Assembly: GCA_036172245.1 (NCBI GenBank)
Contig: JAYWIR010000035.1
Span: 372,001 to 436,000 of the forward strand
Direction: 5' to 3'
Length of the DNA stretch: 64,000 bases
DNA from: Raillietiella orientalis
Taxonomy: Eukaryota
Each line of letters opens with the position of its first letter. Position 1 is the first letter of the stretch. A model generated the notes under the pieces. It was given only the letters and a program-made list of their open reading frames with translations. It made no database searches and was not told the origin of the DNA. This document shows, piece by piece, positions 7,497 through 64,000 of the stretch. The position numbers were made by a program, and so were the translations under genes.

Positions 7497-8801
7497 ATGA
7501 AGAGATATTTGCCTGCAATAAGCCATAAGACAAAAAGGTGTTCAAGAAATAATGACTTTCGTAAATTTCCCATTTTGAACAGCACTGGTGGAGTAGAAGC
7601 AGACATGAAGCAGTGTAACCAGCATAAAGGAATATTTGACGGGGACAGTGTTTTTATAGATGATGAAACATCTATAAGTATGATGTGCCGTATGGTAAGG
7701 AATTATCTAGTTAATGATAATTTGAAATGGTCTATGTGGCAATGGCTACATTGTCCACCCATAAAATAGGGAGGATTTGGAAAAGGCAATTTATCAAGAA
7801 GTAAACCAGTATTTAAGGAACATTATACAGTAATAGAGAAATGTCAGTATCAGAGGAGATATGAATGGCAGCATATTCTTAATAGTATGTCATTTCTTAC
7901 AGAAAATCCAGATAAAATACAGGAGGAAATATTACATGGTAACAGTTTAAAATTGAAATGTTCAAATAATCATTTTTTTAAAGATTCTCTACTAAAAGCA
8001 CAATGTTCGGCACATCTTCATGAGCAAGTTGGTGAGACCTTGTGCAAAGAGCCAAAGATAATAAACAATGTTATTGATGAACAATCAAAATTAAGCAATT
8101 CGGATGTCTTGGTAGTGGATGACTTCTGTAATGATAAGGAAACTTTCACATACACTATTAAAAAGGACCCATTTCCAATCAAAGAATTACTTTATCTGAG
8201 TTTAGAAGAAGCATTTTTTCTGTCGTATGGTATAGGTTGTTTGTCTGTTTCCATGAAAAATGGCAACATCCTAACATTGGAAAAAATGTGGGAAGAATTT
8301 TCTAATGTAGATAAGCACTTTCCTTTTAAATATGCTTGCTATCATTATTACAGAAGTTGTGGATGGACTGTGAAAACAGGGATTAAGTTTGGTTCAGATT
8401 ATTGTAAGCTGCCATTATTATTTTTTTTGTTCTTTTACCTCTTTTCAGTGCTTTATAATGATGACCCCTCATATATGCATGCTTCCTGCTCTGTGATTAT
8501 CAGAGTAGTAGATCAAAACAGTGCTGTCATTCAGGACAAAAATTGGCGTTTTTTTGACATTCTCACTCTAGCAAGATTATTACGATTAACAGAGTGCTCA
8601 TCAAAGGTAACAAAGAGGATTATTAATTACATTTTAAATTGATGTATCGTACAGACCTTAGTTGTATTTACAATCATGATTCCTGAAAGCATTTCAAGTA
8701 AAAGTACTATCACTGCAGGATTCCTTCGTGATATCAAGGTTTTTGAATGCATCCTATCTCACTGGTCACCAGAGAAAGAACGAGAAACGACAGTACCTTG
8801 A
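7497..8801 (+). CDS. TSEN2: tRNA-splicing endonuclease catalytic subunit Sen2; exons approx. 7497-7694, 7770-7938, 7984-8403, 8449-8606, 8655-8801
   Basis: Spliced product contains G.FGKGNLSRSKP, ELLYLSLEEAFFLSYGIGCL, YHYYRSCGWTVKTGIKFGSDYLLY...YMHAS (catalytic Tyr/His), SSK (Lys) and a C-terminal HWSPEKER. GT-AG introns of 75, 45, 45 and 48 nt restore the frame; the 7939-7983 intron is inferred and could be exonic. Confidence 0.9.
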
Positions 8802-9289: not shown

Positions 9290-12200
9290 TCAGGCAAAAT
9301 ACATGACTTTATTAGTGTCTGCATGGACAGTAACTGCTCGTGCAAGAGCACTGGGTGTACGATCCTCACTGTTTCCTGATTGATGAGAACCTTCTCCACT
9401 AAAAAATAAACACTAAACTTACAGACTTGAAAACTTCTACAAACCTATCATGTTCCTTCTCAACTAGATGATAGCGAGCACGAAATGCAACAAGATGAGC
9501 ATAGTAGGCAGGAGCTGGTATGGATACACTTCGCGTGCATCTCACATATGTATGGCATAATTGATATGTGAGTTGCTGCAATTCATCTGAGTCGAAATGA
9601 TTATCATCCCATAAAACATGATAATGTGAGGGCCGACTGGTGCCCTGTATTCCTTGGTGTGAACACAAATAAAAATCAAATTCAGTGGGATGTGTAATTC
9701 CCATGTCCACTGTAGTGCCAGCTGGAATATTTCCTGACTTTCCAGACATATCTTTCTTATCAGAACAAAACAGTCTCGTATGATGGCGTTTTTGCACCAC
9801 AATGAAAGTTATACCAGGCCGATACTCAGGTTCAAGTTTGATGCAAGCCTCACGCACAGCAATCAATTCATGCTGTAGCACAGTTTGAAATTGGCCTTCA
9901 CTCACTCCATCTCGGTAGAAAATGATTCGATTAGGTTTAAAACGAGTAGATTTATAAAACTGAATGAGCAACTCTCGGACCATTGCGGATAATTCTTGGA
10001 TAATTTCCTGTCGATGTTGCTGGACCCTCACAGTAGCTGCATATCTTGATGGATGTGCATCCATAGATCCAACAACTGCTGCTATGGACGGTTTTTTGTT
10101 ATCTCCAGCTGGTGGATGTGTTACATCAGCACCAAGGAAAATAACAGGCTCATTGAACACCTGAAGTTACAGAAGTATAATCACCTTTGTGAATGATTTC
10201 TAACCTTAGGTCGAATACTAGGGACAAGAATACTATTGACACCACCTAACTTGACATTAATTTTCAAGCACAAATTAGACAAAGTTTGTGGTGATGTTTT
10301 GTTTACATTTTTTGCTTGAACACACTGAGTAGCCATTCCTAGCACAGTATCACCAACACGTTTCACTTCAGCTAAGCTTTGCATATAAAATGAAACACTA
10401 AGGGCCAATTTACCATATACAGGTGTTTTCCCTGGCAATACAACCACAACTAACTGTAATCCATCAAAATTCGCTTTCAGGTAACGGAACATGGGTTCTA
10501 CTTGGTCAGGACCAGTAGCATATTTACAAAAACATGGACCACCAATAATTGGCATACCTGCATCATTACTTATCTTCTGAAGTTGTTGAGTAAAATTCCT
10601 GTGGTTTTCCATATAATATAATTTTATTTATATCTATTCTGACCTGAGATTGTCTTCACGAACCAGCTTTGAGGAAGCGAAACAGGCAATTGCCCAAACA
10701 CGGATTTCAACACCACAATAGAACTGTTTGCCACGCATATCCCACACACCTTGATTTGGTAAAGCTTGTTGTTTTGTCTAACACATAACATTAAAACAAA
10801 AACACTTTTAATTTTCATGACCACTCTAATGCATAATGTTTCTTAGTATCTTTGCAAGGATAAGTATGTTTACTTTATTTCAAATTTCTCATTTTGATAA
10901 TAAATCAGTTAGGATTACAATCAAAAAATAAAAACATTAAGCAAAATTACATTTTCAAGCCCTACCCTGCCACCATACTGGAGTTTAGGTGGTGGAAGGA
11001 CACGACCACGGACTTCCATCATGCTATGGCTGATAGTCAATCCAAATTCTTTAACATAAGGATCATTGTTAAAATCAGCCTTGCGAACCAAATTATTAAT
11101 TTCTTTTTCTCTATCTGGAGCAGATCTTGCTGTAGCTTTTATCATAGTAGAAGTCTGCATATCTGTCAACTTCTTGATGCAGCGCTGTCCAGCCACAATA
11201 TTACACACCTTTATGGACATCAGCACTTTGGTGATAAGATTTGAATATTTAACTTACTTCTAAAGGAAGATAAGTATGCTTATGCTCTTGACCTACTTGC
11301 AAGCATGAAAGATGGGGATACATGAGTTTCATACGATATTTATCTAGAAAATATTTGGCAACAGTGCATTCAACAGTTTGCCCATTCTCCAGCTGTAGAG
11401 GAAATCTGGGCAAAAATAACATACAACGTATTTAATTTTTCATTTCATTACGATTGCATCTGTGCTGGTCTTCTTGTCACATTACATACACGGTATTTAC
11501 GACGCATAGTGCCACAATGGGTGATTTCTATTTTAAGACCTTTAATCTCCTTTGTAAATTTGACTCTCTGAGAATCGGTTAGAGGTTTTTTTTGTTCATT
11601 GATATCTTGAATGTCCAAGACTTCACACATGAATTTCACAACAGGTTGAGCTTTATAAAATGCAGTTGCAGATACTAAAAACAAAGAACACAAAATTCTT
11701 TGGTATTGAAGAGCATTCCAATTACCATCAATGTTAAGCATCATTTTCCACTGTGATGGTCTTACACTCTGATGAAAACCAAACCAAACTTCCCTACCAC
11801 CACCCAATGGGTGATAATAGCCTTCTGGTGAAGAGAAAAAACTACGACCTACAGGTGTATATGTCATAGAAGGCAAATGACGCATAACAACATCCAAAGC
11901 CTGGACTTAATGTAAACACAAATGTATTCCAATGATATATAATAACCTGAATAGCATCAAATGGGATGGTTCTTGATCTTCCTTCCAAAGCCTCTTCTAA
12001 GGCATACAAAGAAACTTGTGCAACCCATTTGACAGCTACTCTAAATACTCGATCCTTCCCTTCACCTGGTAAAGTTACCTAAATTAGAATTAAATTAGGT
12101 TTGCAAATGACCTGATTAGATTTTAAAAAAACAAATGTCACAGACTTACATCAAGTTTCAAAAAAATAACCAAAATTGTACAAATGTACATAAACCATCA

Positions 12201-27334: not shown

Positions 27335-30300
27335 TCATTCTAAGGAACCTAATAAATCAGCACATTCCTCATTTGTGTCATCTTCATCTTCAAATTCTTG
27401 AGCATCTTCATACTTTGATAATAGTTCATGCTTGAATGCTGTGTGGGACAAGTCCACCTCAATAGGAAAAAAATGACGATTTTTCAGGATTTCCAGACAG
27501 TGATCGTAATACTTCGCTAAACCAGTCACAAACCGTTGTAGTTGCAAAACAATGTCTTGTACATGTTTATTATCCAAGAGCTCCAGTTTTTCCAAAACAT
27601 CCTTTCTCAATTTAGCGAACTGATTACGAGCTTCTTGCCTACATCGAAGAACTAAGCGATATTCATAATTTCCGGTTTCTAGTCGGTATAGTGGTTCCTG
27701 TATGGCCATGTAATTATATTCCTCATCATCCATTTCTTTCACTTTCAAACAGTAAGAAAGATATTCAAACTTGGTATCGGCATACTTCTTAATTGTTAAA
27801 CGAGTATCGGGAATTGCTTTTGTTATGTAGGTGCTCATTCCCGATAGGATCTCAAATTAAAAAATATTTGAAAGGTACTTCAAAAATGGTCTTACAAGTT
27901 TCGAGCCTTGTAGAAACTGAATTCCTGCTTTTTCCATCTGGCGATGCACATTTCCAAATTGGCTAAACACTTCACTAGCAGTTGGATGAGGTTCCCGGAC
28001 ACCAATAGCAGAAAAGCATTCTCCAAAGGCTTATGGGGAAGCTTGAAAATGCAGAACAATAGTACTTACCCTTGTAAACTTGCATGAGATGAAAAAAGGA
28101 CTTGAATACTTTTTTTGTTTGTTCCATTATCCCTTTGTACATTTGTTCCGTCTTGTCTAATTCATTCAGCCTTTTTACGAGACTATCATTACAAAGAATT
28201 GCTCTGCTGAGCCCCAAGGCATCAGCTACAGAACTACTCATGTTTTCCACAAGACGATGTTTAACTTTCTTCAAAACTAAAAGAAAACAAAACAAAGCAT
28301 GAACACCACGACATTATATCATTAACATATTTCAACGATTTGAATTTCTTAAATCATCAATGGTTCGACCATAAAATAATCAGTATGAAACAATTCAAAT
28401 AAATTAGGTATCTCGAAACCACAAATCTAAATCCATTTGAATCGTGATTACTCATTGTTTACTGAAATACCTGGATAAGAATTAAACCTAATAATATGGA
28501 TTCAAATTATGTATAATTTCCAAAGCATTTCACCAGCTTGCAGTTTTAAATCTTATGTACTGAAATAATGACTTGTTTTGGGGTAAGCCTTCATCCGTAG
28601 TAACTCATTTTCCGGAAATCTGCCCTCTGATTCAAGTTTTATTCTTCTGGTAGTAGGCACCACGGTTTTTTAGGTTTTCTAAATTTAGATTATGTACATT
28701 GTAGTTCTAAAATTCGACTCTTGTGACAGGGACTTGATCTTGATCTTGTGCTTGACTGCTCCAACATATACTGTTGCAAAACTGCTAGTAAATCATGTTA
28801 TAAACGTAACTTCATTATAATTGAAAAAAAGAAATTCAAAGATGCCTGGTGATGCAGGATCAAATTAATCAATATATTAAACTTCAGCTTGCAATTTTCT
28901 TCATGGTTTTCATAGAAGTAACATCAAGCTATAAATATCAAGACTGCAATCCCATTGTACATGAAAACCATACAGATATATACAAAGGGTGTAACTGGGT
29001 TGATGCAAACCATTTTTTAAACATGCAATCTCAAAGACAGTTATGTATAACCTAGTTGAGTTCAAACTGGTGCTTTTACGATTAACTTAACATTAAATAT
29101 GTCGAAATTTATTGCTAAAATTTTCATGAAATTCAGAACATAAATTTCGGAAAACGTAATTTTCTAAATCCCTCTTTAAAATAGCAGAAACTGCCAAAAT
29201 TTCCAATCAGCTCTGATCTTTCTTATCAAACAAACATGTGAAAATGTCATACAGTAAACATTTTGTGCAAAATTACAGACTGCACATATTTCTCATGGAA
29301 ATTTACGCATAATCTCTTTTGCTAACAGAAGGTTCAATATGGACTAAATTAGCCAGTGCAGTCAAATGACAATATATTTTGTGTGCAGAATTTCCCTGAT
29401 ATATATGTTAAGAAAATGTCCTGAATCTGTAATACCAAATTGCTCCACTCAATATTAAATCAGCAATATAAGATTCACCCTCTGATAGCAATCACTACAA
29501 ACTTAGCTGGAAACAGCAAAACATTACTCACTTTACTTTAGTAGCAATTATGACAAAAGTGTCTACAAACAATAAAAAAAAGAGATGAACTGTTTAAAAA
29601 ATCTCAAGTTCATTCAAATCTATCATTAATGTACCTGAATGAAAGAAAAAGAAATACTTCAGCCACAACTATACTAAATCTATGCCATATCAAAGAAACA
29701 CTGCAATTATCTCGTTAATTTTAAAAGCATCCTTATGGTCACTGAAAATTTATACTTTCAAATCCACTTATTTTACCAGCCAATTGTCTTTATGTTATAT
29801 TTTAAATTTTAGAAATGTGATTAAATCTGCATATTGCAACTTGGCAAGATTTCATACTTCATCAGAAAAATCATTTGATTGAAACAATTTCACACTGATT
29901 TACGTATTTCCGCATTTAATCGAAACTGAAACTTCATTCATGAGAACACAATCACGTATTAACCATTAAAAGCAAACTAATCTAACGCACAACAGATCCT
30001 AGCAGCATATTCAGCAAACAATACAACAAAATGAAGAAAGCACAAAATTCTGATGCAATAAATCTTAGGTTCTTTTCGTCATATCAGTAGAAAGAGTGAT
30101 TTTTAAGACAAATGATCATAAATCTTGCATCACTTTCATACATTAATAGAAGAATAAGTGTATGAAAACAAAATTAGCAAGCACTTAGATTAGATGAAAA
30201 GACAATTTGGGGAGTGGATGGAGCTCTTATTTAGTTAGAGATAAAAAAGTTTCACTAAACATGGTGAAAATTAGTTCAGCTAAATCCTGTTCCTGGGATT

Positions 30301-37010: not shown

Positions 37011-39945
37011 ACAACGTTTGTTTAAAACGACCATTAAAAATTCCAATTGAACAGAAGATAAGGATCTTATGTAAGAGTTAGGTTTTCTCATTTTTCCGAA
37101 TTTGTAGTTTGTTTGAAAGTCTTAACGAATATGGTTCTTATCATAAAGTTAGATAATTCGAAATAAATGGGTGTGATATAAAACAAGGGATTCCGTTAAT
37201 CTTGGATGCATAATACAAATCCTTTGGCATAGTGATATATTATCCATAAATACAAAGACAATAACATTTCTATTCTGACTTCTGTGAACAAGTGCTGGTG
37301 CTTCCTTTTTATTATGTGTTCATTTTTCCAGTTTCATTTTATTCGGCCTCAGTCAATAATCATTTTTCCATTTCGTAGGAGTCCCAGTTATTAATTCTTG
37401 GAAACGATATAACGAAAAATAGAGCAGTGGAAGATGCTTGACAATTGTAATAACATTTGTGATTTATTAAGCTTTGTTGATCAAAAGTCATGAGTAATGC
37501 TCGTTCTCATCAATGCATCATTACCATAGTTATAATTCCGTTTCACGTTTAGGGGAAACTATGACTTTATGTCAGTTTGGGGATAGGTCGGGCTCGATGT
37601 ACTACTGGAGATCAAGTGCATGATTGACACGCTGACTATTCTAATAATTTGAGCGAGCGCCTAATAAACGGCAATGACGACGATCTCACCGATGACATTC
37701 TTGAACTGTAGAATTCTGTTTCTCACTGTTTCAATAAATGGTTATTCAAGCATTTTTTGAACAGATGTTACTTTTTTTTTTTATTACTGATATTCTCGAA
37801 ACAGAGTTCAGGCATATTGTGAACATTACTAACACTTGATGAGACAAGCACTGCATCTGTCAGAAACTCAAAATGTGTCTTTGTTTTTAAAAAAGAGCTT
37901 AAGCTTCTGCAAATCCAAGTATTTAATTTTCTAAGAGTTAAATATGTCGCATGCTGGTAGAATCTTGGAAAAAACACTTTGGAAGTCCAATTGGTTAGGT
38001 TTTAATTTATTCTGTGAGCAACTAAATTCTCAAATTCGTTTATCGACACTGGCACTAATAGGATTCCATATAGTTCTACTTTCCTGATTTTCTTATTGAA
38101 ATATAATTATGCTCATAATTTGAATTAGCATGCACAAATTTGGTGTCTCCCGATTGCAGATTAGTATTAGTATCGAAATACTATTGGCAGCGTGAATATA
38201 TCCGTGTTAGCTGCACAGAGGTTGATTCAAATGATCTTTTTTATATACGAACTATATACGTGTTTGATATCTTTCGAATATGTGTTTTTGGTAGTTTGCA
38301 GTTTCATGATGCTATTGATTTTCATCTCTTTTCCCATCCGTTATACTGATCTAACAATTCTCATGGGTTCTCGAGTGCTTGAAGTTCACGTAGGTCCTAA
38401 CTCACGTCGCTGTTCAACATTAAGTAACTACTGAAAATTGAGCTCATTGATTTGAACTTTCCTGACCATTCTCGGGATTCAAGTTCGAGGACATCATGAC
38501 AACCTCTACCTGAATTTTAGATTTGTGTTAATTTTTGCTTTCCAAATTTTACCGATGGTTCATCCGTTTAAGTGTCTGACGAATTTTAGTAGCAAAAGAG
38601 GTATGAATTGCATTTAAGTTGGTCAAAAGAAAGGAAAAAACTAGGCATCGACCGTAGTTCCTCTCAATAGGTAATTGATATCTGTGGGTGCTGATTAATT
38701 CGTTTAAAACAAGGTGGATGGCTTTGAATCGGTTAAAAATTCAAGTTAAAGCCACAGGTTTTCGTATTCACAGAATATTATACTTACTACTAGTTGCCAT
38801 GAAAACATAAATGGTTTCTTGAATAAAAATAATTGTAGTACTTGGTATAAATAGTAACCGTTTAATGTGTCCAGTATTTCTTTGTAAAAAATTTATGAAT
38901 ATTAGATCGAAATTCTAAGTCTAGTTGTTTATCTATATAATCTTGCTTTCAATTGTATTGTGGTGTGATGGTGTAACACTTTGAGTCGGCCTTTACTATA
39001 TCAGTCGTTCAAGTTTAATAGCTTATTTAAGCATGTTGGTATTATATATTCTAGTGGTAGACGGTTCCTGTTCCTAATTTTTTAAAGCCAGTTTGATAAT
39101 GGCAATAATATACTTTGGATGAAATGTGTTAAGGCAAGTATATGTGGCATGTGCTTGCCATGGCACACTCACCACCTATCTGGAATTCTTGATAAAATCT
39201 TCAAGTAATCCATTAAAAGTACAGTAGCATTTGTAAAAAGAAATTAAGGAAAACAGTAGTACAGCCTCAGAAAATTTAGGATGTGCCTGCATCAAGTACC
39301 AAAGTTGAGCGTTTGCAGGGATCTGCATCAAGATGAAACAATAATATTCCGGGAAACATTCCGACCTACAGTGAGTTCAAATCCCCTGCTTTTATGAGTG
39401 CATTAGAATAATTATATAGTAAGATAAAATTATCGAAAATAATTTAGATCTGGTGCAAGGTAAGTCGAGAGTTGTTCATCTTAGGGCTTAATGTTGTAAC
39501 GTTTTTATTTTCAATTAATGTTCCTGAAATAGGATTAATTAACAGTTCATTGCATAGATGCATTAATAGAGAACAAAGAATAACTATTACACAAAAAGGA
39601 GGAAAATTAAATTACACTTCATGATAACAGCTAAATAATAAGCATAAATAATTCCAACATTTTTTTGTGTGTTTTAGCACATGGATAGTTTTTATTAAAA
39701 CTGCCAATGTGTGTATATGTATTGTGGAAAAGGTCTTTAATAAAGTACACAGCCTCACAGTCTTGTAAACTTTGTGAAATTGTACACATTAATGTTCTTG
39801 TGATGTGGTGCTTCCACTTGTTAAAGCTACATAGATCCTTAAACGGGTTTTTTCCTTATAATAGTGTATAAACTCCAACCAACATGGGATTTTGGTTATT
39901 CAATTTGTAAACGTGCGTTTTAAATAAAATGAAATTAGACTGAGA

Positions 39946-40668
39946 TTAAAAATCATTTTTTTGGTGGTCACTAAAAACATTTCCAAGCATTGTTTTAATC
40001 AACAAATCATCTGTTAGCTGATATGCTGTTTCTTTTTCATTGTTTTGTGCTTCAGAATCAGCACCACTACTCAAAAGTAGTTTTACAATTTCAACATGGT
40101 TACAAGAGGCTGCATAATGCAATGGTGTTTGTTTCTCAATATCTTCAGCATTTACATTAGCACCATGTTTAATTAAAAGTTCAACAATTCGCAAATTTCC
40201 TCGATCACTGGCCCAATGTAAAAGAGTCATTTGGGAAGAATCCGATAAATTTGGATTGTTATGTTCATTATTCAACCAATCAGTTACCTTACATTCATTC
40301 CCATTCTTAACCCAATCAAAAATATCATCATCACATATGTCTGAGGGAGCAAGCATTCTACTTACTGCCACTCCAAGCAATTGCTTTTTTTCCACATCTG
40401 TGTATTGCCAATTTGGATCAATTTGCTGAACCATTTGTATATACCTTTCTCTGGCTTCGTTTTGACTTAATTTACTAACATCTTTCCATGCTTTCCATTT
40501 TTTTTTGGCCTGAATATCAAATATTCTAGGTGAAGATAGGGTGCATGGTCCTTCTCTAGCTTGTTTATACAGTCCATACAAATCAAGTAATTGATGCTTG
40601 TCCAATTTGTCCACTAAAATTTTTATATGTTCAGCAGCACTTTCAAAGATTTCCACAGTATCATTCAT
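39946..40668 (-). CDS. ACBD6: Acyl-CoA-binding domain + ankyrin-repeat protein (ACBD6-like), 240 aa, intronless CDS
   Basis: ACB domain (FESAA...LLDLYGLYKQAREGPC...KKWKAWK...ARERYI...DPNW), linker GVAVSRM, then ankyrin repeats (TLLHWASDRGN, QTPLHYAASCNH). Uninterrupted ORF. Confidence 0.93.
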   Translation of the reverse strand: MNDTVEIFESAAEHIKILVDKLDKHQLLDLYGLYKQAREGPCTLSSPRIFDIQAKKKWKAWKDVSKLSQNEARERYIQMVQQIDPNWQYTDVEKKQLLGVAVSRMLAPSDICDDDIFDWVKNGNECKVTDWLNNEHNNPNLSDSSQMTLLHWASDRGNLRIVELLIKHGANVNAEDIEKQTPLHYAASCNHVEIVKLLLSSGADSEAQNNEKETAYQLTDDLLIKTMLGNVFSDHQKNDF

Positions 40669-41405
40669 GATGGCTGTAATGCAAATAATTGAATTGAGTG
40701 AAAATTTGGCACAGAGACACCTGCAACCTCCAAAGAAGAAACTTTGAAACTATCTAAGGTAATCACTGAAGCACTCAGACCCCACTTCCTCAACAAATAC
40801 TCAAATGACCAATTTGAACTCCGATTTTGGTATGTGCAGTAAAATATTGCTTGTGGGTTGACCTTGAATATGAAACTCACAGTTACCAATAAATCTTCGA
40901 AACATGCTGGATCAAACAAACAATCTGATCCTAATATTATATCAACTGGTCCTAATTCCAAAATATCAGGTGTTATTACACCCCACGTCAAAGGTATAAC
41001 ATCGACTACATCAGTGGTCAGATTTAGTTCACTAGATTTTCGGCATGAAGACAATGATTGGGGGTGCAAAGCACTATCTGTTAAAATAACTTTTGTCGCT
41101 CCACATTTGGCTGCCACAATGCCAGGTAATGATGTCCCTGCTCCTAGTTCGACTACGATTTTATCAAGAAAATAAAGCTGATTGTACCAAACGTATTGCG
41201 CTAATATAATTGCACATGGCCAAGTGTAAAGCCCGTAGCTTGCATCTAAAACCTTTCATACGATACTTTAGATGATAATCTGTGAAGCACTTACCTCAGG
41301 TATGTCTATTTCTAAATCAGCTGTTTTCGTCGCTAGAGTATATTCTTTGCGAAAAGTGAAATGTTTAATTACGTGCTTGCGAAGTTTGTTTTCAGAATCC
41401 GTCAT
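40665..41405 (-). CDS. METTL23: Methyltransferase-like 23 (class I SAM-dependent, family 16), 232 aa; exons 41405-41295 and 41252-40665
   Basis: IPEVLDASYGLYTWPCAIILAQYVW, VELGAGTSLPGIVAAKCGA (motif I), VILTD, LTWG, DIILGSDCLFDP, YQNRSSNWS..LLRKWGL. One 42-nt GTAAGT...AAG intron (41294-41253). Confidence 0.92.
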
Positions 41406-43149
41406 AACCAATTTCGCAGTTTGCGCATTAGAGACTTCATTGTTTCAAACAATATTGGTAGACTTTGTAATTGATGCCAACATTGAAAATTGTTTTTCTA
41501 AATTACTTATTATTTACAAAAATTAATATGCCCCCTTGACGATGCATACTATGACTGTGAAGACGCTTGTGCATGAGTGATTCATTAGTGCCATGTAATT
41601 GTATTTATGTACTATTAGATGATGTTTTTTACTTTAAGTTTAACTCGAAAATTAGCTTTTGGCGCTAAAGAACAATCACGATTCAAAAGATATTTAATTT
41701 CATGTTTTTGGAAAGTATCAAGGATAAAATTCATTTCAAGTTGTAATGATGGTTTTAATTTTTTTCGATTTCTTTAATGATTAAAGTAATAAGAGTTGCT
41801 ATTGCCAGATACCAAATCTTTCCTTCCAGTGCAGCAACTTTTGTGAATAACACTAATGACATATGGGTCTAATGATGTACTAATCATAATTTGCATACAT
41901 AGCAAATGTTTTTTTCCAAGTAATAATCAGCTGACATTAATATTCCTCAGATTCCTTTACTTCAGAGAAACGATCATTTCAATAGATAGGATAACGATTT
42001 TTGTGAATCAGATCCAGTTAAACGTGATAAATTTGTGTTAGAAGAATACTAAATCACAAGAATACTTCGATTTCCTAAGAGTAAAATCCCTAGGTTTATC
42101 AGTGTGTAATTGATGTAAGGTTGCGTTGTGCATATGTTGTTAATCGGTTTAGATAATTCCTGCTGGTTCGTTTCTTATTTGCGCAAAAGAATAAGAGAAT
42201 CGGATTTGACCGCTTTGGTGGAAGATTTTATGGTTGTTATTTCAGAAGATAAAATCACCGTTTATTTGCAATAAATTTATTTTTTGCATGATTCAAGCTC
42301 GGAGTTAACATTAATCGCAAATATTGCTCCTGCTATGGATGATGGAGATCTAATTTGTTTTTCTGAACTATAGTGAGCTGATAGGTAGATAATTGTTCTC
42401 ACTGATGATAACTCTTACATGCAAGAGCTATTGTGTTCTACAAAATATAGCTACCTTATATAATTATGAAATAATAAGTAAAATTCTCTTCAGCAACTTA
42501 TGAAAATGAATTGATTTATATAATTCTGTATAAATTTCTTATATGGAATTTTTAAAAATCACTACCATTTGTGTGGATACAATTCAACGATCAATTTAAA
42601 GTATAGGCAATCATTTTAACAGAATATAGGAAGCAAAGCACTGAACTGAGAATAATAAAGTATTCAGATAAGTGACAAATCCTCAGTAATGAGCAGTTTA
42701 TTTTTTGTGGTTTTCTAAGGTGTTTCTAAGTTTTTTAAGGTGGTGCTGGTTGTTTCAGATGCGTCATGTATGTGCATGTTACGTACGTTGGTTTGACAAC
42801 ATTCGGCAAAGTCTCACATTTACACACGGAAATGTTTTTATTTTATTAAAGTACACTACAGCCATTTACAGGAGTGAAGAGCTGAAGAGAAGCTTGCTAA
42901 TAGAGTTGAGAACCTTCCTTTCAGCTTCATTTTCATCAAAATGTGAACTTTTCTTCCACATTACCCTACAGTGTGCCATAAAAAGGAAAAACGTGATGAG
43001 AATAATTTATAAATTTTACCATTTTATAAATTTACATTTTTCTAAGTTGAGCATCAGGTGCTGCTCACAAAGCTAAACAGAGCCCAGAAATGGCTGTAGA
43101 AAAAGGAGCTGGTCCAGAGTGCATGGATGCGGATCTTTTAAATAGAGCC

Positions 43150-47380: not shown

Positions 47381-47453
47381 GGGCCTGTGGCGCAATGGAT
47401 AACGCGTCTGACTACGGATCAGAAGATTCCAGGTTCGAATCCTGGCAGGCTCG
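47381..47453 (+). tRNA. tRNA-Arg (anticodon ACG), intronless
   Basis: GGGCCTG/CAGGCTC acceptor stem, A box TGGCGCAATGG, anticodon arm TCTGA-CTACGGA-TCAGA, B box GGTTCGAATCC, followed by a T-run (aagttttt) as Pol III terminator. Confidence 0.97.
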
Positions 47454-60500: not shown

Positions 60501-60990
60501 AACATCCCGTTGTGCCAGTGAGACATTCCGCAGCATCACCCACTGTCCAGCAGCCGCAACCGAGCGTCTCCGCGCGTGTCTTCCTTCCTATCTGCACACT
60601 GCCCCTTCATTGAGCAAAAACTTGACATGATGCTGCGGGTGACGCACCCGTGTGCAACACGAGCCATCTGAACACCTGAAGCCCTAAAAGGAAATTTTGC
60701 TTCGACCATTCGGCGCAATTTTCGTCCGATTCATACCTTGAAAGGTTCAAATAGAAAAGCTCTCTTTATGTCCCGTGGCAATCTGTTTGTTTTACGCGGG
60801 GGGAAAGTTCCAAGCTGCAGCATCTGGAAGAGGTTCAAGGAACCATTGGAATTTTCGCATAAAATAAGCATCAAAAATCCATTGTGTGTTGTTTGTGTGA
60901 AATTTTTATTGCATTTATGTACATACGTGTTGTGTGTAATAACATCAGTATTAATACTCACCGGTGTGATTCTTTTCTCCTAACAGAATA

Positions 60991-61903
60991 ATGTCAAAGA
61001 GGAAATGGTACCACTATCCAAATAAATGGTTTGCCCGGCGTGATGCGACCGAACTAAGAATTTCCCAATGTGAGGCACAAGAAGAGTGCTCTCCCGACAG
61101 CATTCCAATGAAAGATCTGCTTAGGGAAAGGAGCGAAGATCGGGAGCTGGTCGAAGAGCCATCAAACATGGAAGTAGCAATCCCTGAATGCGCTCAACCA
61201 ATGCTGGAGGGAAGAACAGATGTCGGCAGGAGTGTTCCGAACCGCGGTTTCTTCGCATCAAAGTACGCGTTCATGTTGACATTTTGCGTTGCCTTTGTGT
61301 TACAAGGCATGTTCTACACGTACTTGGTCAGCAACTTGACAACGATAGAAAGAATCTTCAAGATTCCAAGCAAAACCATTGGATCGGTTATGAGCGTAAC
61401 AGAGCTTGGGATGATTATCGGCTCACTGGGGCTGAGTTACTACGGTGGTCATGCTCACCGGCCTAGACTGATGGGCTGCGGAATGTTATTGGTGGCGACG
61501 GGCTCGTTCATGCTGATCCTTCCTCACTTCATCGAGGATAGGAGCGATATGTCTTTCATGTCGACAAAGCAAGTGAACTCCAAACTGTGCATTCCTTTGG
61601 CCGAGGAATTGAAAGTGCGAAACTCCACTCTCAGCCCCAATTCCACTCTCCGCGACGATTTGGATTTGCTCGGTCCCCCAGATCACGAATATGGCGAACC
61701 CCTTCATCCCCATCCGGAGGAGGAGGAACTCGACCAGCGATGCCAGCCTGAAGATGATAAGACTGCCAGGACCAGAATGAGAGGCCTGGTCATCTTCGTA
61801 ACCAGTTTGCTGGGAGTTGGCATCGGGGCGGCCGCCCTCAACACGCTAGGAATACCATACCTTGATGACAATATCACGAGCAAGGAATCATCTCTCTATT
61901 TCG
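60991..61903 (+). CDS. Oatp74D: SLCO/OATP organic anion transporter, Oatp74D (ecdysone importer)-like; first coding exon, gene continues beyond what can be resolved here
   Basis: FMLTFCVAFVLQGMFYTYLVSNLTTIERIFKIPSKTIG...SYYGGHAHRPRLMGCGMLL...LPHF and SLLGVGIG...TLGIPYLDDNITSKESSLYF (OATP signature region). Acceptor ttttctcctaacag at 60986 and donor G|GTAATT after 61903. SLCO family is secure; subfamily assignment is from remembered motif similarity. Confidence 0.85.
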
Positions 61904-64000
61904 GTAATTTTTTTCAATTCAGATTAGTATTAGTAGATCATAGTTACTGTGTACTTGTGTGAACGTTTTATAATCGCAAAGAGTCGGAAGTTCTTCTGAA
62001 TCATTCTCAGTGACTCAATCTGCGCTTTCCCGCTTGCAAAACCTCTAAATAACTGATGACGGTCAGAAATCTGCTTTTCAAAAAAAGAAAAATCAGGTCT
62101 CCTTACGCGAGAGTGAAGTGTGACGGAAAGGGGAGAAATTCGTCTGCCGATCAAATTTCCATGGTAATGTCTTTGAACGTAGCACCTCGACAAGGAATCG
62201 CATCCCCTTGTGGGTGAGGCATTAGAGAAATACGGATGTGGAAGAAGCAGCAGCAGCAGAAAAGAGCAAGCATTTAGGTGAGATCTGAGATTACCGGTTA
62301 GCCCACAAGGAATCAGGTGGATTTCGGCAGGCTCAAACGGATGGGAATGGTGAAAATGACGTAGCCTCAAGTCTTTTGTGAAGATGTATTGAGAATCATC
62401 GTACAAGAGTGAACTGCTTTTTTTAATTATAAATGAGCACCAGCGTGCTCTGGCATCGCAACAGGCATTTCAGTGTTTTCTTGAAAATGAAATCCAGCAG
62501 AAATCCATTCAGAAAATGCTTTGCTCGAGTGGACAGTGTTTATTCAGCACGTGACTATGCTTGAAATCAAACGAGTAACGTTACTGCAATGGCATCTGCT
62601 ACTAAATTCACAAGGGTTGACGTCCACTAAAATGGCGAAAATCGAAGGCTGTGATGTCGCAATCTGCATCTCGGATTTGATTTACATTACTCGATTGCGA
62701 CTGAGCTGACCACCGTCGGTATCTACGTAATTTAAGAAGTCGTTGTGATCCACTCTTCGCTTCTTTTTCTCTTTTTAAACGACACTTGGTGCTGTCTTGA
62801 AAGCCAATCCTATGTCTATTCTTTAACTTACAACCCGATTTGTCATCCCTTAGAACATTCCAGCCGATGAAATTATCGGAAAAGTGCAGCGCGAAACGGA
62901 CAATACATAGAAAGAAGAGCATGGGCAAACTTTCAAACCAAGTGGTTTTTTCAAACGCAGCTGAGTAGGCTGTTTTGAACGGCTTTCTGTACAGTACTGT
63001 TCCCTGGACGCATACCCTGTGGCACCACGTGATCACGTCGTATTGGTAATCCGTTCTTCTGCAAGCTCCTTGCATTGTTCCTCTTCGGAATGGACCTCTC
63101 CTCTCCTGACCCTCTTGAGCAGAAAGCTCGCAGAATGTCAAATGTGTCGTTCGTAACCTGGCAGGGATGCTTGAAATTCTGCTCCTCACTTCTATCACAC
63201 AACTCTCCTTCAAAAGCTCGCCTTCAGCTGTCTCGAAGAGTGAACGCTGAAGGGTTTTCTTTTGTAACAGCGAAGCTGGGATGGAAATCCAACCACTCAT
63301 TTTGCATCGGAATCTGGAGAACTGGCGCGGTTCTTTCATTTACGTACTGATCAAGAAACATCATGCTGAAACAAGGTTAAAACACCAGAAGTACTGTGTC
63401 TAGCAATGACTGCAAGAGACCAGAGACCCTCACAGAGGAATTTCGAGTTTTCATGCCTTTTTTGCTTTGAAGATGACCATCTTAACCAATCGAGGTCACC
63501 AACACTGGAAACCAATAATTGCCAGAATGAAAAATAAAAATGGAGATGACCTGCTGGAAATCGTGATGTATGATGTTCTAAATTGCAAAGAAAAAAAAAA
63601 ATCCAGCATTTCCAATTATTTGTGTATTCACAAGAATGGTTTTTGTTGGCATAAAATGATGAGAGTCTGTAATCAGCAGTTCTTGAGAACACAAACAGAA
63701 CTTCTCTTCCTACTTGTTTCCGCGTTTCATAAATGAATTCAAACATCATCATTGCTGGAAAGTTTTGTCTGCTTTATTTGCATTAAGCCTTCCTCGAACT
63801 TCTTTCTGCTATTCAAGAGTGCATTCGATTTGGGATGCTGCACCGGAGCTTCACACTGATGATGAATGCAATGAAAAAAGGTGAAGTTGAATCGGATCTC
63901 CAGTCAACGAATCGTCAGCTTGAGGATCCTTTCGGAAAAATTCGTGCAATCCGATAGACAAAAATGAAACAATTTTTTAACATGCAGAGCTAACTCTGGT

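Follow-up and report, generated by a model that had tools for sequence, protein, structure and literature searches.

How is a second protein made when its start codon overlaps the stop codon of the gene before it? The question is raised by a METTL23-like and an ACBD6-like gene on the minus strand of the window, the whole 64-kb stretch of DNA analysed here. A sequence-only reading had described the two as an operon-like pair joined by an ATGA overlap, and had proposed that one dicistronic mRNA yields both proteins, possibly by stop-start reinitiation.

Two intact genes joined by a stop-start overlap

The minus-strand junction reads ...CAG CCA TCA TGA, with the ACBD6 ATG at 40668-40666 and the METTL23 TGA at 40667-40665, and the letters agree with the overlap as first read. 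The distance from the METTL23 stop to the ACBD6 start is therefore -4 nt. The METTL23-like coding sequence (41405..40665, minus strand) encodes 232 aa, contains the Pfam domain Methyltransf_16 (PF10294, E=1e-18) and can be aligned over its whole length with 15 orthologues, natural C-termini included. Its exon 2 product is 51-53% identical to the named METTL23 proteins of Palaemon, Penaeus and Oratosquilla over 98-100% of the exon. The METTL23 intron occupies exactly the same position as in related genomic contigs (L007, L008, L010, L015, L017, L018, L029, L061 and L021), after the residues IPE. Tiny introns are normal in this window, since its Argonaute gene has one of 44 nt.

The ACBD6-like protein carries the ACBP domain (PF00887, E=2.5e-24) together with Ank families, and is 40% identical to the named ACBD6 of Bemisia tabaci over 96%. 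Its N-terminus matches the natural N-termini of 19 homologues, and a search 5' of its start found no in-frame ATG. The two genes are thus members of the METTL23 and ACBD6 families and both are intact and full-length, as had been claimed. The first AATAAA after the METTL23 stop also lies beyond ACBD6, at 39696-39691, as first noted, though two ATTAAA variants occur within the ACBD6 coding sequence, at 40173 and 39999.

Table 1. Features of the METTL23/ACBD6 locus in window coordinates
Feature	Position	Strand	Remarks
ATGA stop/start overlap of METTL23 and ACBD6	40665..40668	-	sequence read directly
METTL23-like exon 1, 37 codons	41295..41405	-	start context ttggttATGac
42-nt phase-0 intron, GTAAGT...AAAG, in-frame stops inside	41253..41294	-	GT..AG, same position as the intron in relatives
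METTL23-like exon 2, 195 codons + TGA	40665..41252	-	without in-frame ATG; 7 out-of-frame ATGs
ACBD6-like coding sequence, single exon, 240 aa, ACBP domain + ankyrin repeats	39946..40668	-	start context gccatcATGaa
First AATAAA past either stop codon; candidate shared poly(A) signal	39691..39696	-	250 nt beyond the ACBD6 stop
12-codon upstream ORF (MKSLMRKLRNWL*), putative part of the transcript	41402..41440	-	TGA overlaps the METTL23 ATG

The adjacency recurs among relatives

Among 80 METTL23 loci taken from metagenome records, 32 have ACBD6 just downstream on the same strand. ACBD6 comes directly next in 15 of them, at a gap of -8 to about 190 nt, and in the other 17 a small RRM ORF of 79-88 aa lies between the two genes. 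Seven further loci run from METTL23 to this SLIRP-like ORF, after which the contig ends or no ACBD6 was found. Across the cluster variants spacers range from -8 to about 460 nt, and in the linked loci the first ORF is 212-470 codons long. Six additional ACBD6 queries returned no extra linked loci. Inside the linked clade, L030 has neither ACBD6 nor SLIRP within 4.9 kb downstream, while L070 and L058 have SLIRP but lack ACBD6 over 4.2 kb and 0.44 kb, respectively.

Genome compaction does not account for the overlap, because roughly 3 kb on both sides of the pair contain no convincing ORF. These ORF-poor flanks, together with the recurrent adjacency, make it more than chance. Nor does the junction look like an artefact. 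That a 1-nt assembly error conceals a single fused METTL23-ACBD6 ORF is scarcely credible, even though the two frames lie one base apart at the junction: METTL23 stops at the natural C-terminus of its orthologues, ACBD6 starts at its natural N-terminus, and each of the 32 linked relatives encodes them in distinct ORFs that have stop codons. A Pfam check for a fused protein, covering 12 long representatives among the best 150 of 3917 METTL23-like clusters, revealed no ACBP, ankyrin or RRM domain.

The middle ORF is provisionally labelled SLIRP-like for its size, its position and the fly precedent discussed below. In comparisons with solved structures it matches a human SLIRP chain at 1.2e-13, with generic hnRNP RRMs scoring higher. 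The window itself contains no match to SLIRP within its 64 kb, and the interval 5' of METTL23 (41.4-44.5 kb) holds no ORF of note that could be SLIRP or snapin.

A quick METTL23 tree, restricted to loci long enough to enter it, places the linked loci in one clade (SH-aLRT 92) together with the named insects; the malacostracan references form its sister group. The window sequences form long, unplaced branches in both the METTL23 and the ACBD6 tree. Kinship of the window with the linked clade is suggested by the shared architecture and by its Argonaute exon, which shares 95% identity with Darwinula and 94% with Strigamia and has near matches that are all arthropod. The METTL23 of L022 has an arthropod METTL23 as its nearest protein cluster.

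Spacing varies even among close relatives. The gaps are 28, 16 and 24 nt in L024, L025 and L028, and 3, 27, 8 and 18 nt in L005, L006, L027 and L021; L022 and L023 show overlaps of 8 nt, L029 has UAAUG at both junctions, and spacers of 3-30 nt predominate in the direct loci. Whether adjacency and the ATGA phase are both conserved thus has a split answer: adjacency is, and the phase, given the spread of gaps in the 15 direct loci, is not.

These spacings bear on the idea that ribosomes ending METTL23 at its UGA reinitiate on the overlapping AUG as the main source of ACBD6. Termination-reinitiation takes place at AUGA- and UAAUG-type junctions in caliciviruses and influenza B. After long ORFs it generally requires a helper element, and the TURBS motif is TGGGA (UGGGA), complementary to 18S. 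The window does have a true AUGA overlap, and the 8-nt overlaps, the UAAUG junctions and the prevalence of short spacers in relatives point the same way, but the first ORF is long at 232 codons, no TGGGA occurs within 200 nt upstream, and closely related loci do not keep the overlap. As the main route, stop-start reinitiation has therefore lost ground since the sequence-only reading, and we consider it quite unlikely. The window shares the overlap of stop and start with viral systems, such as the UAAUG junction described for hypovirus CHV1 in the available text of PMC2699510, and differs from them in the missing upstream TGGGA and in an overlap that relatives do not conserve.

Spliced contigs carry both cistrons

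Several relatives are represented by contigs that resemble RNA. L004 and L012 lack the IPE intron, which the first eight genomic contigs named above possess, yet all three ORFs are present. L005 and L006 likewise contain both ORFs, and both introns of genomic L021 are missing from them. Because these are short contigs without the METTL23 introns of related genomic contigs, L004, L012, L005 and L006 are read as spliced polycistronic RNAs. In L004, L006, L024, L025 and L039, the contig ends 14-147 nt 5' of the METTL23 ATG and 53-176 nt past the ACBD6 stop. The intron argument does not extend to L022, L024, L025, L028, L031 and L039, since genomic L049 also has no intron at IPE. The earlier view that METTL23 and ACBD6 form one operon-like unit of intact genes is borne out by the four spliced contigs, and in the window's own species the pair would presumably be co-transcribed as well.

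A spliced-leader operon, in which the precursor is cleaved and trans-splicing adds a leader at the ...ttacag just before the ACBD6 ATG, could also yield both proteins. Trans-splicing is reported in some crustaceans, and the acceptor-like motif lies 5 nt 5' of the ATG; a cut at this site would, however, take away the METTL23 stop codon, and the RNA-type contigs of relatives keep both cistrons together and spliced. The window also contains no recognisable SL RNA family, although 64 kb is a small sample for such a search. This arrangement is very improbable.

Three features shared by the linked loci

The linked loci have three features in common: an ATG-poor first cistron, a poor METTL23 start context paired with a strong ACBD6 one, and an upstream ORF (uORF) that overlaps the METTL23 start. 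Between the METTL23 and ACBD6 starts, the median ratio of observed to expected ATGs is 0.43, against 0.93 in the ACBD6 coding sequences of the same loci, and it is the lower of the two in 13 of 13 loci and 9 of 9 lineages. Unlinked METTL23 genes have a median of 1.06. ATG counts fall below the mean of synonymous shuffles in 11 of 13 linked loci and in 3 of 12 unlinked ones. The p-values for these comparisons are rough, as the loci share phylogeny and are not independent: 0.004 for the paired ratios (Wilcoxon), 1.6e-4 for linked versus unlinked genes (Mann-Whitney) and 0.005 for the shuffle counts (Fisher). Across the linked loci, ATG is depleted before the downstream start, as in leaky-scanning polycistrons.

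The window follows the same trend, with 7 ATGs in the 692 nt before the ACBD6 start versus 27 in 720 nt of ACBD6 (ratio 0.53) and no internal Met in METTL23. At two of these seven internal ATGs the -3 base is a purine. Judged on the window by itself, the count is not significant against synonymous shuffling (mean 7.7; fraction at or below, 0.46), and codon-order shuffling gives a mean of 10.4 and a fraction of 0.13. Pure leaky scanning assessed from the window alone was set aside for this reason: its ATG depletion is a trend, not a significant effect.

Start contexts form a gradient along the cluster. A at -3 is the arthropod optimum, and it is found at 1 of 20 METTL23 starts versus 21 of 27 ACBD6 starts; G at +4 likewise occurs at 21 of 27 ACBD6 starts. 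In the window the -3 base is G for METTL23 and A for ACBD6, which suggests the suboptimal first start and better downstream start expected of leaky scanning.

Of 20 linked loci, 15 have an out-of-frame uORF that overlaps the METTL23 start (8 of 12 lineages as grouped here), compared with 2 of 12 unlinked loci; shuffling predicts 4.6 of 20. The TGA of the window's putative uORF falls on the METTL23 ATG, creating a second ATGA junction and what appears to be a short uORF across the first-cistron start, of the kind found at KSHV ORF35-ORF36. Since it ends at +3 relative to the METTL23 start, this uORF could feed METTL23 instead of serving bypass.

How ribosomes may reach ACBD6

The METTL23-like and ACBD6-like genes are probably two cistrons of one transcription unit, with ACBD6 reached by bypass or leaky scanning. 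The unit would represent a compact form of METTL23-(SLIRP)-ACBD6, a long-standing gene cluster of arthropods. Its transcript would most likely be a single capped mRNA that begins 5' of 41440 and is polyadenylated beyond 39696. Ribosomes initiating on the moderately placed METTL23 AUG would make METTL23, and those passing over it would make ACBD6. They may pass by translating the short uORF that ends on this AUG and then resuming scanning, or by plain leaky scanning, and would then move across METTL23, whose coding sequence is poor in ATG, until they meet the ACBD6 AUG in its favourable context. This route is predicted from sequence features. Because the ATGA is not conserved, uORF-assisted bypass combined with leaky scanning fits better than stop-start reinitiation, which also leaves the ATG depletion, the start-context gradient and the uORF unexplained. 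Termination-reinitiation at the AUGA may still contribute, without being the conserved principle.

ACBD6 could instead come mainly from a monocistronic mRNA of its own, made from a promoter in the METTL23 coding sequence or by splicing the exon-1 donor at 41294 to the acceptor-like ttatttgcattacag. This string is pyrimidine-rich (...ttacag, 40687-40673), and the two ATTAAA variants in ACBD6 could terminate a METTL23-only mRNA. According to the available text of PMC4528330, both genes seem to be expressed solely as dicistronic transcripts at only 45 of the fly's 159 dicistronic loci, but the same text lists the fly counterpart as 'all di/polycistronic'. Moreover, the string encodes conserved METTL23 C-terminal residues in an AT-rich genome and is not seen 5' of the ACBD6 ATG in other direct loci, and selection against ATGs in the upstream cistron has no explanation if ribosomes never scan METTL23 toward ACBD6. 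A separate ACBD6 mRNA as the main source is therefore unlikely, though it deserves some weight. The string ends 5 nt before the ACBD6 ATG, and a splice there would leave only a 39-codon uORF with the same TGA.

Comparison with known polycistronic systems

The sequence-only reading stated that the Drosophila ACBD6-like gene anox, which we take to be CG33713, is annotated as dicistronic with a different partner. The case is real: in the accessible parts of PMC2276209, PMC4528330 and PMC4267620, CG33713 (acyl-CoA-binding) and CG33714 (RNA-binding, DmSLIRP1) are exclusively di/polycistronic and 59 nt apart. The available text of Hayden & Bosco (2008, PMC2276209) reports the pairing in ESTs out to 'Carmae' (Pancrustacea). 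In the fly, as predicted for the window, an ACBD6-type protein comes last on a polycistronic mRNA, and the 59-nt spacer falls within the 46-82 nt that separate SLIRP from ACBD6 in L017, L026, L061, L062, L004 and L012. The window differs in having METTL23 as upstream partner, no SLIRP and overlapping ORFs; the fly locus is listed in these texts only as a pair, versus a three-gene unit in relatives. Another fly gene, CG9960, a 'putative methyltransferase', is given as dicistronic with snapin (PMC4528330 and PMC2276209, available text); it is a candidate for the fly orthologue of METTL23.

Calling such overlaps rare in animal nuclear genes was an overstatement for arthropods, since FlyBase, according to the available text of PMC4528330, records 159 dicistronic pairs, whose spacing between stop and start begins at -34 nt. 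Exclusively polycistronic fly loci span -34 to 319 nt in that text. Polycistrons of the FlyBase type have two or more conserved same-strand ORFs at a short or negative distance on one processed mRNA; the window pair, at -4 nt, has this spacing and would probably share such an mRNA. For downstream cistrons the same text leaves an IRES, resumed scanning or another mechanism open. It also remarks that most fly dicistronic pairs do not satisfy the demands of scanning and that many of them also yield monocistronic transcripts as an alternative, a remark that counts against the scanning model proposed here.

A parallel for bypass comes from KSHV ORF35-ORF36, where, in the available text of Kronstad et al. 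(2013, PMC3561293), a short uORF that overlaps the start of ORF35 allows reinitiation at ORF36. Both systems have a short uORF across the first start, a first cistron with at most two internal Met codons, a uORF conserved in position and not in sequence, and a downstream start that linear scanning reaches in KSHV and would reach in the METTL23 cluster. KSHV is viral and has experimental proof, whereas the present case is a cellular animal gene known from sequence alone. The scanned stretch is also longer, at 0.7-1.4 kb in the METTL23 cluster versus 332 nt in KSHV.

Cellular leaky-scanning polycistrons are known as well. Green-algal bicistronic loci combine a weak ORF1 context with AUG depletion, shown to reflect leaky scanning (Duenas et al. 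2025, PMC11892635, available text), and the silkworm uENF1-uENF2-PP mRNA is described as a tricistronic leaky-scanning message (Kanamori et al. 2010, PMC2978622, available text). The METTL23 cluster resembles them in its weak first context, the scarcity of ATG before the second ORF and the unrelated proteins encoded, and differs in its long first ORF and in the 7 out-of-frame ATGs that the window retains.

Origin and significance of the cluster

Part of the cluster is already known as Drosophila SLIRP1 (CG33714)-CG33713, and polycistronic genes are common in flies. A literature search on METTL23 with ACBD6, and on METTL23 with 'cistronic', found no description of METTL23 as a first cistron. 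It is quite conceivable, if not quite probable, that METTL23-SLIRP-ACBD6 is an ancient three-gene arthropod 'operon', dating back at least to the common ancestor of crustaceans and insects and expressed from a single mRNA. Protein ratios would be set by the start-overlapping uORF, the weak first start and an ATG desert of up to 1.4 kb, an arrangement that would parallel, in a cellular gene, the ORF35-36 strategy of a herpesvirus. The window lineage would then have dropped SLIRP and squeezed the rest into the AUGA overlap, with a second AUGA where the uORF meets METTL23. Under this reading, selection has held the three on a single messenger, and their proteins may therefore have a common function that has gone unrecognised.

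How downstream proteins are synthesised is unresolved for most fly polycistronic mRNAs, and the METTL23 cluster offers a deeply conserved natural test case. Its many independent sequence variants, some of which lack the middle gene and whose spacers run from -8 to about 460 nt, have the same three signatures throughout, and the mechanism is therefore directly testable. That the genes have stayed on one messenger in a large share of arthropods may also be a lead to a shared METTL23/SLIRP/ACBD6 pathway. For annotation, the arrangement is a warning that gene predictors may miss or merge the METTL23 and ACBD6 cistrons. In humans, METTL23 and ACBD6 are both neurodevelopmental disease genes. The available text of an epilepsy review lists the two together.

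Gene pair and junction in the window

The overlapping METTL23-ACBD6 pair is real. The minus-strand junction reads ...CAG CCA TCA TGA ATG..., and the ATGA stop/start overlap described in the sequence-only reading is borne out, as are its two intact ORFs and its placing of the first AATAAA past the METTL23 stop at 39696-39691; ATTAAA also occurs twice within the ACBD6 coding sequence. The ACBD6-like N-terminus coincides with the start site of 19 aligned homologues, and no in-frame ATG precedes it. The METTL23-like product (232 aa; Methyltransf_16, 1e-18) contains no internal methionine and aligns end to end with 15 orthologues, natural C-termini included. An assembly error at the junction is unlikely.

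The best protein matches are distant, namely decapods and a stomatopod for METTL23 (51-53% identity) and Bemisia for ACBD6 (40%); in the trees of both proteins, the window sequences sit on long branches, unplaced. No convincing ORF lies within ~3 kb on either side of the pair, so the overlap is not a by-product of a crowded genome. Elsewhere in the window, an Argonaute exon of 255 aa matches an ostracod at 95% identity and a centipede at 94%; almost all its remaining named matches at ≥88% identity are arthropods, which places the window among arthropods. G+C is 0.40-0.51 above 44 kb versus 0.28-0.37 in 20-42 kb.

Features of the METTL23-ACBD6 pair and its neighbourhood (window coordinates)
Feature	Position	Strand	Remarks
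tRNA-intron-endonuclease-like ORF	7770-8639	+	
Argonaute	9399-12000, intron 10161-10204	-	Piwi domain, 2.4e-97
Arfaptin exons	27338-28313	-	
ACBD6-like ORF	40668..39946	-	240 aa; ACBP domain, 2.5e-24; ankyrin repeats
METTL23 TGA	40667-40665	-	overlaps ACBD6 ATG
ACBD6 ATG	40668-40666	-	overlaps METTL23 TGA
METTL23-like exon 2	41252..40665	-	
METTL23-like intron	between exons 1 and 2	-	42 nt, GT..AG
METTL23-like exon 1	41405..41295	-	one splice required for full gene
uORF	41440..41402	-	12 codons; TGA overlaps METTL23 ATG (second ATGA junction)
tRNA-Arg(ACG)	47381-47453	+	
OATP transporter exon	60970-61959	+	

A conserved METTL23-(SLIRP)-ACBD6 cluster

A METTL23-alignment scan of metagenome records yielded 80 loci (L-numbers below), in which ACBD6 was sought by tblastn with the window ACBD6 as query. 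An ACBD6-like ORF is present in 32 of them, in every case 3' of METTL23 and on its strand, and six additional ACBD6 queries added no linked loci among the 80. The sequence-only reading had proposed checking conservation by tblastn: adjacency is kept in these 32 loci, but the ATGA overlap is not, even among close relatives. METTL23 and ACBD6 are direct neighbours in 15 linked loci, separated by -8 (L022, L023), 3, 5, 7, 8, 16, 17, 18, 24, 27 or 28 nt, or by about 64-190 nt (L038, L039, L045); the window gap of -4 nt lies at one end of this range.

The remaining 17 linked loci carry a single-RRM ORF of 79-88 aa between the two genes. This ORF matches human SLIRP (1.2e-13) as well as generic RRMs; the name SLIRP-like rests on its size, its position and the fly precedent. 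Seven further loci have METTL23 followed by a single-RRM ORF without detected ACBD6; five of these contigs stop before ACBD6 could be detected, and ACBD6 is absent from 4.2 kb more of L070 and 0.44 kb more of L058. The tightest three-gene version seen, genomic L029:2143-3889, has TAATG overlaps at both METTL23/SLIRP and SLIRP/ACBD6.

In a quick maximum-likelihood METTL23 tree that took in only some of the linked loci, these form one clade (SH-aLRT 92), which also holds named insects and has malacostracans as its sister. Three-gene loci group with insects, and two-gene loci form two clades of their own. L030, inside the linked clade, lacks a partner gene within 4.9 kb. The hemichordate Glandiceps, the only non-arthropod species in both match lists, has METTL23 and ACBD6 on contigs of different length. 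One two-gene clade (L022, L024, L025, L028, L031, L039, L049, L051) has an acidic, serine-rich, almost methionine-free METTL23 N-terminal extension of 130-320 residues, with a single ATG in the 1140 nt of L049 and a single internal methionine in the 470 aa of L031.

A probable single messenger and its introns

The proposed single dicistronic METTL23-ACBD6 mRNA is well supported by relatives, where spliced, RNA-type contigs hold the cistrons together; for R. orientalis it is a prediction. An intron follows "..IPE" in genomic L007, L008, L010, L015, L017, L018, L029 and L061 but not in L004 and L012, each of which holds METTL23, SLIRP and ACBD6 on a single contig. Of the two METTL23 introns in genomic L021, neither occurs in its relatives L005 and L006, which retain both genes. 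Five complete contigs have mRNA-like ends, 14-147 nt 5' of the METTL23 ATG and 53-176 nt 3' of the ACBD6 stop. The "..IPE" site is intron-free in genomic L049, so for its clade the contig ends are the sole argument for RNA origin. A spliced-leader operon is unlikely.

The 42-nt METTL23 intron is credible because introns occupy exactly its place in related genomic contigs and the Argonaute gene of the window has a 44-nt GT..AG intron (10204..10161). Together, the two suggest that the minimal introns of this genome are unusually short for an arthropod. Twelve genomic contigs bear METTL23 introns (L007-L011, L015, L017, L018, L034, L021, L029, L061), and in each, as in the window, the tblastn match to ACBD6 is a single uninterrupted stretch. 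Within the cluster, introns of these 12 loci and the window are confined to METTL23, the first cistron, with SLIRP and ACBD6 uninterrupted. In vertebrates, ACBD6 and SLIRP are split by several introns; intronless downstream cistrons may reflect a retroposition origin or a constraint on polycistronic mRNAs.

Signatures of probable scanning past METTL23

Linked loci are depleted of ATGs ahead of ACBD6, by statistics that are rough because the compared loci are mutually related. Across 13 linked loci, the median ratio of observed to composition-expected ATGs is 0.43 in the stretch between the METTL23 and ACBD6 starts and 0.93 within the ACBD6 coding sequence, the former being lower in 13/13 loci and 9/9 lineages (p=0.004). 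The median for unlinked METTL23 is 1.06 (n=12, p=1.6e-4), where unlinked means that no partner was detected, several loci having too little downstream sequence to judge. When protein sequence and codon usage are kept constant, ATG counts fall below the shuffle mean in 11 of 13 linked versus 3 of 12 unlinked loci (p=0.005). Linked METTL23 proteins, 212-470 aa long, contain 0-1 internal methionines.

Start contexts form a gradient: A stands at -3 in 1/20 METTL23 starts versus 21/27 ACBD6 starts of linked loci, a purine at -3 in 13/13 SLIRP starts, and G at +4 in 21/27 ACBD6 starts. Moreover, a short out-of-frame uORF, whose start lies 7-38 nt upstream of the METTL23 AUG and whose end lies 3-39 nt past the A of that codon, overlaps the start in 15/20 linked and 2/12 unlinked loci, against 4.6/20 after shuffling; its position is kept across loci, its sequence and frame are not. 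In green algae (PMC11892635) and in a silkworm tricistronic mRNA (PMC2978622), ATG depletion and a start-context gradient were shown by experiment to mark leaky scanning. The uORF and ATG depletion recall the KSHV ORF35-36 mRNA, in which a uORF over the first start causes skipping and downstream reinitiation, and whose ORF35 homologues have at most two internal methionines (PMC3561293). By these sequence signatures, ribosomes would probably reach ACBD6 by bypassing the METTL23 start through leaky scanning and/or the uORF.

Termination-reinitiation at AUGA, the mechanism suggested in the sequence-only reading, may contribute to ACBD6 output; with the overlap unconserved and no TGGGA in the 200 nt upstream of the junction, it is probably secondary. 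A separate ACBD6 mRNA could arise from an internal promoter, or from splicing of exon 1 at an acceptor-like ...ttacag that lies 5 nt ahead of the ACBD6 ATG, but neither route would account for the ATG desert, and monocistronic forms of the corresponding fly pair are absent from its FlyBase record.

The window itself fits bypass of the METTL23 start. Given the second ATGA, its order is uORF-ATGA-METTL23-ATGA-ACBD6, with G at -3 for METTL23 and A for ACBD6. The 692 nt ahead of the ACBD6 start contain seven ATGs and the following 720 nt contain 27, a depletion that is not significant in the window taken alone. A pyrimidine occupies -3 at five of the seven (contexts read by eye). The ORFs opened by the seven span 1-34 codons and all stop about 130 nt or more short of the ACBD6 ATG. 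The candidate uORF of the window ends at +3 and so might serve METTL23.

Fly precedent

Drosophila CG33713/CG33714 is a dicistronic pair with an upstream ORF for a 90-aa RNA-binding protein and a main ORF for an acyl-CoA-binding one, kept in ESTs out to a crustacean (PMC2276209); CG33714 is DmSLIRP1 (PMC4267620). A FlyBase table gives both as "all di/polycistronic", 59 nt apart, and lists no third gene; the FlyBase totals are 159 dicistronic, 7 tricistronic and 2 tetracistronic loci, whose stop-start distances range from below zero to >1 kb (PMC4528330). Polycistronic loci as a kind, and the SLIRP-ACBD6 half of the cluster, are therefore already known. A literature search found no published placement of METTL23 in this cluster; the known fly pair proves to belong to a larger and more ancient METTL23-(SLIRP)-ACBD6 unit, whose translational design is recognisable. 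Separately, CG9960, a "putative methyltransferase" that may be the fly METTL23 orthologue in another dicistron, shares a dicistronic locus with snapin (CG9958) at a distance of 18 nt (PMC4528330 File S1; PMC2276209).
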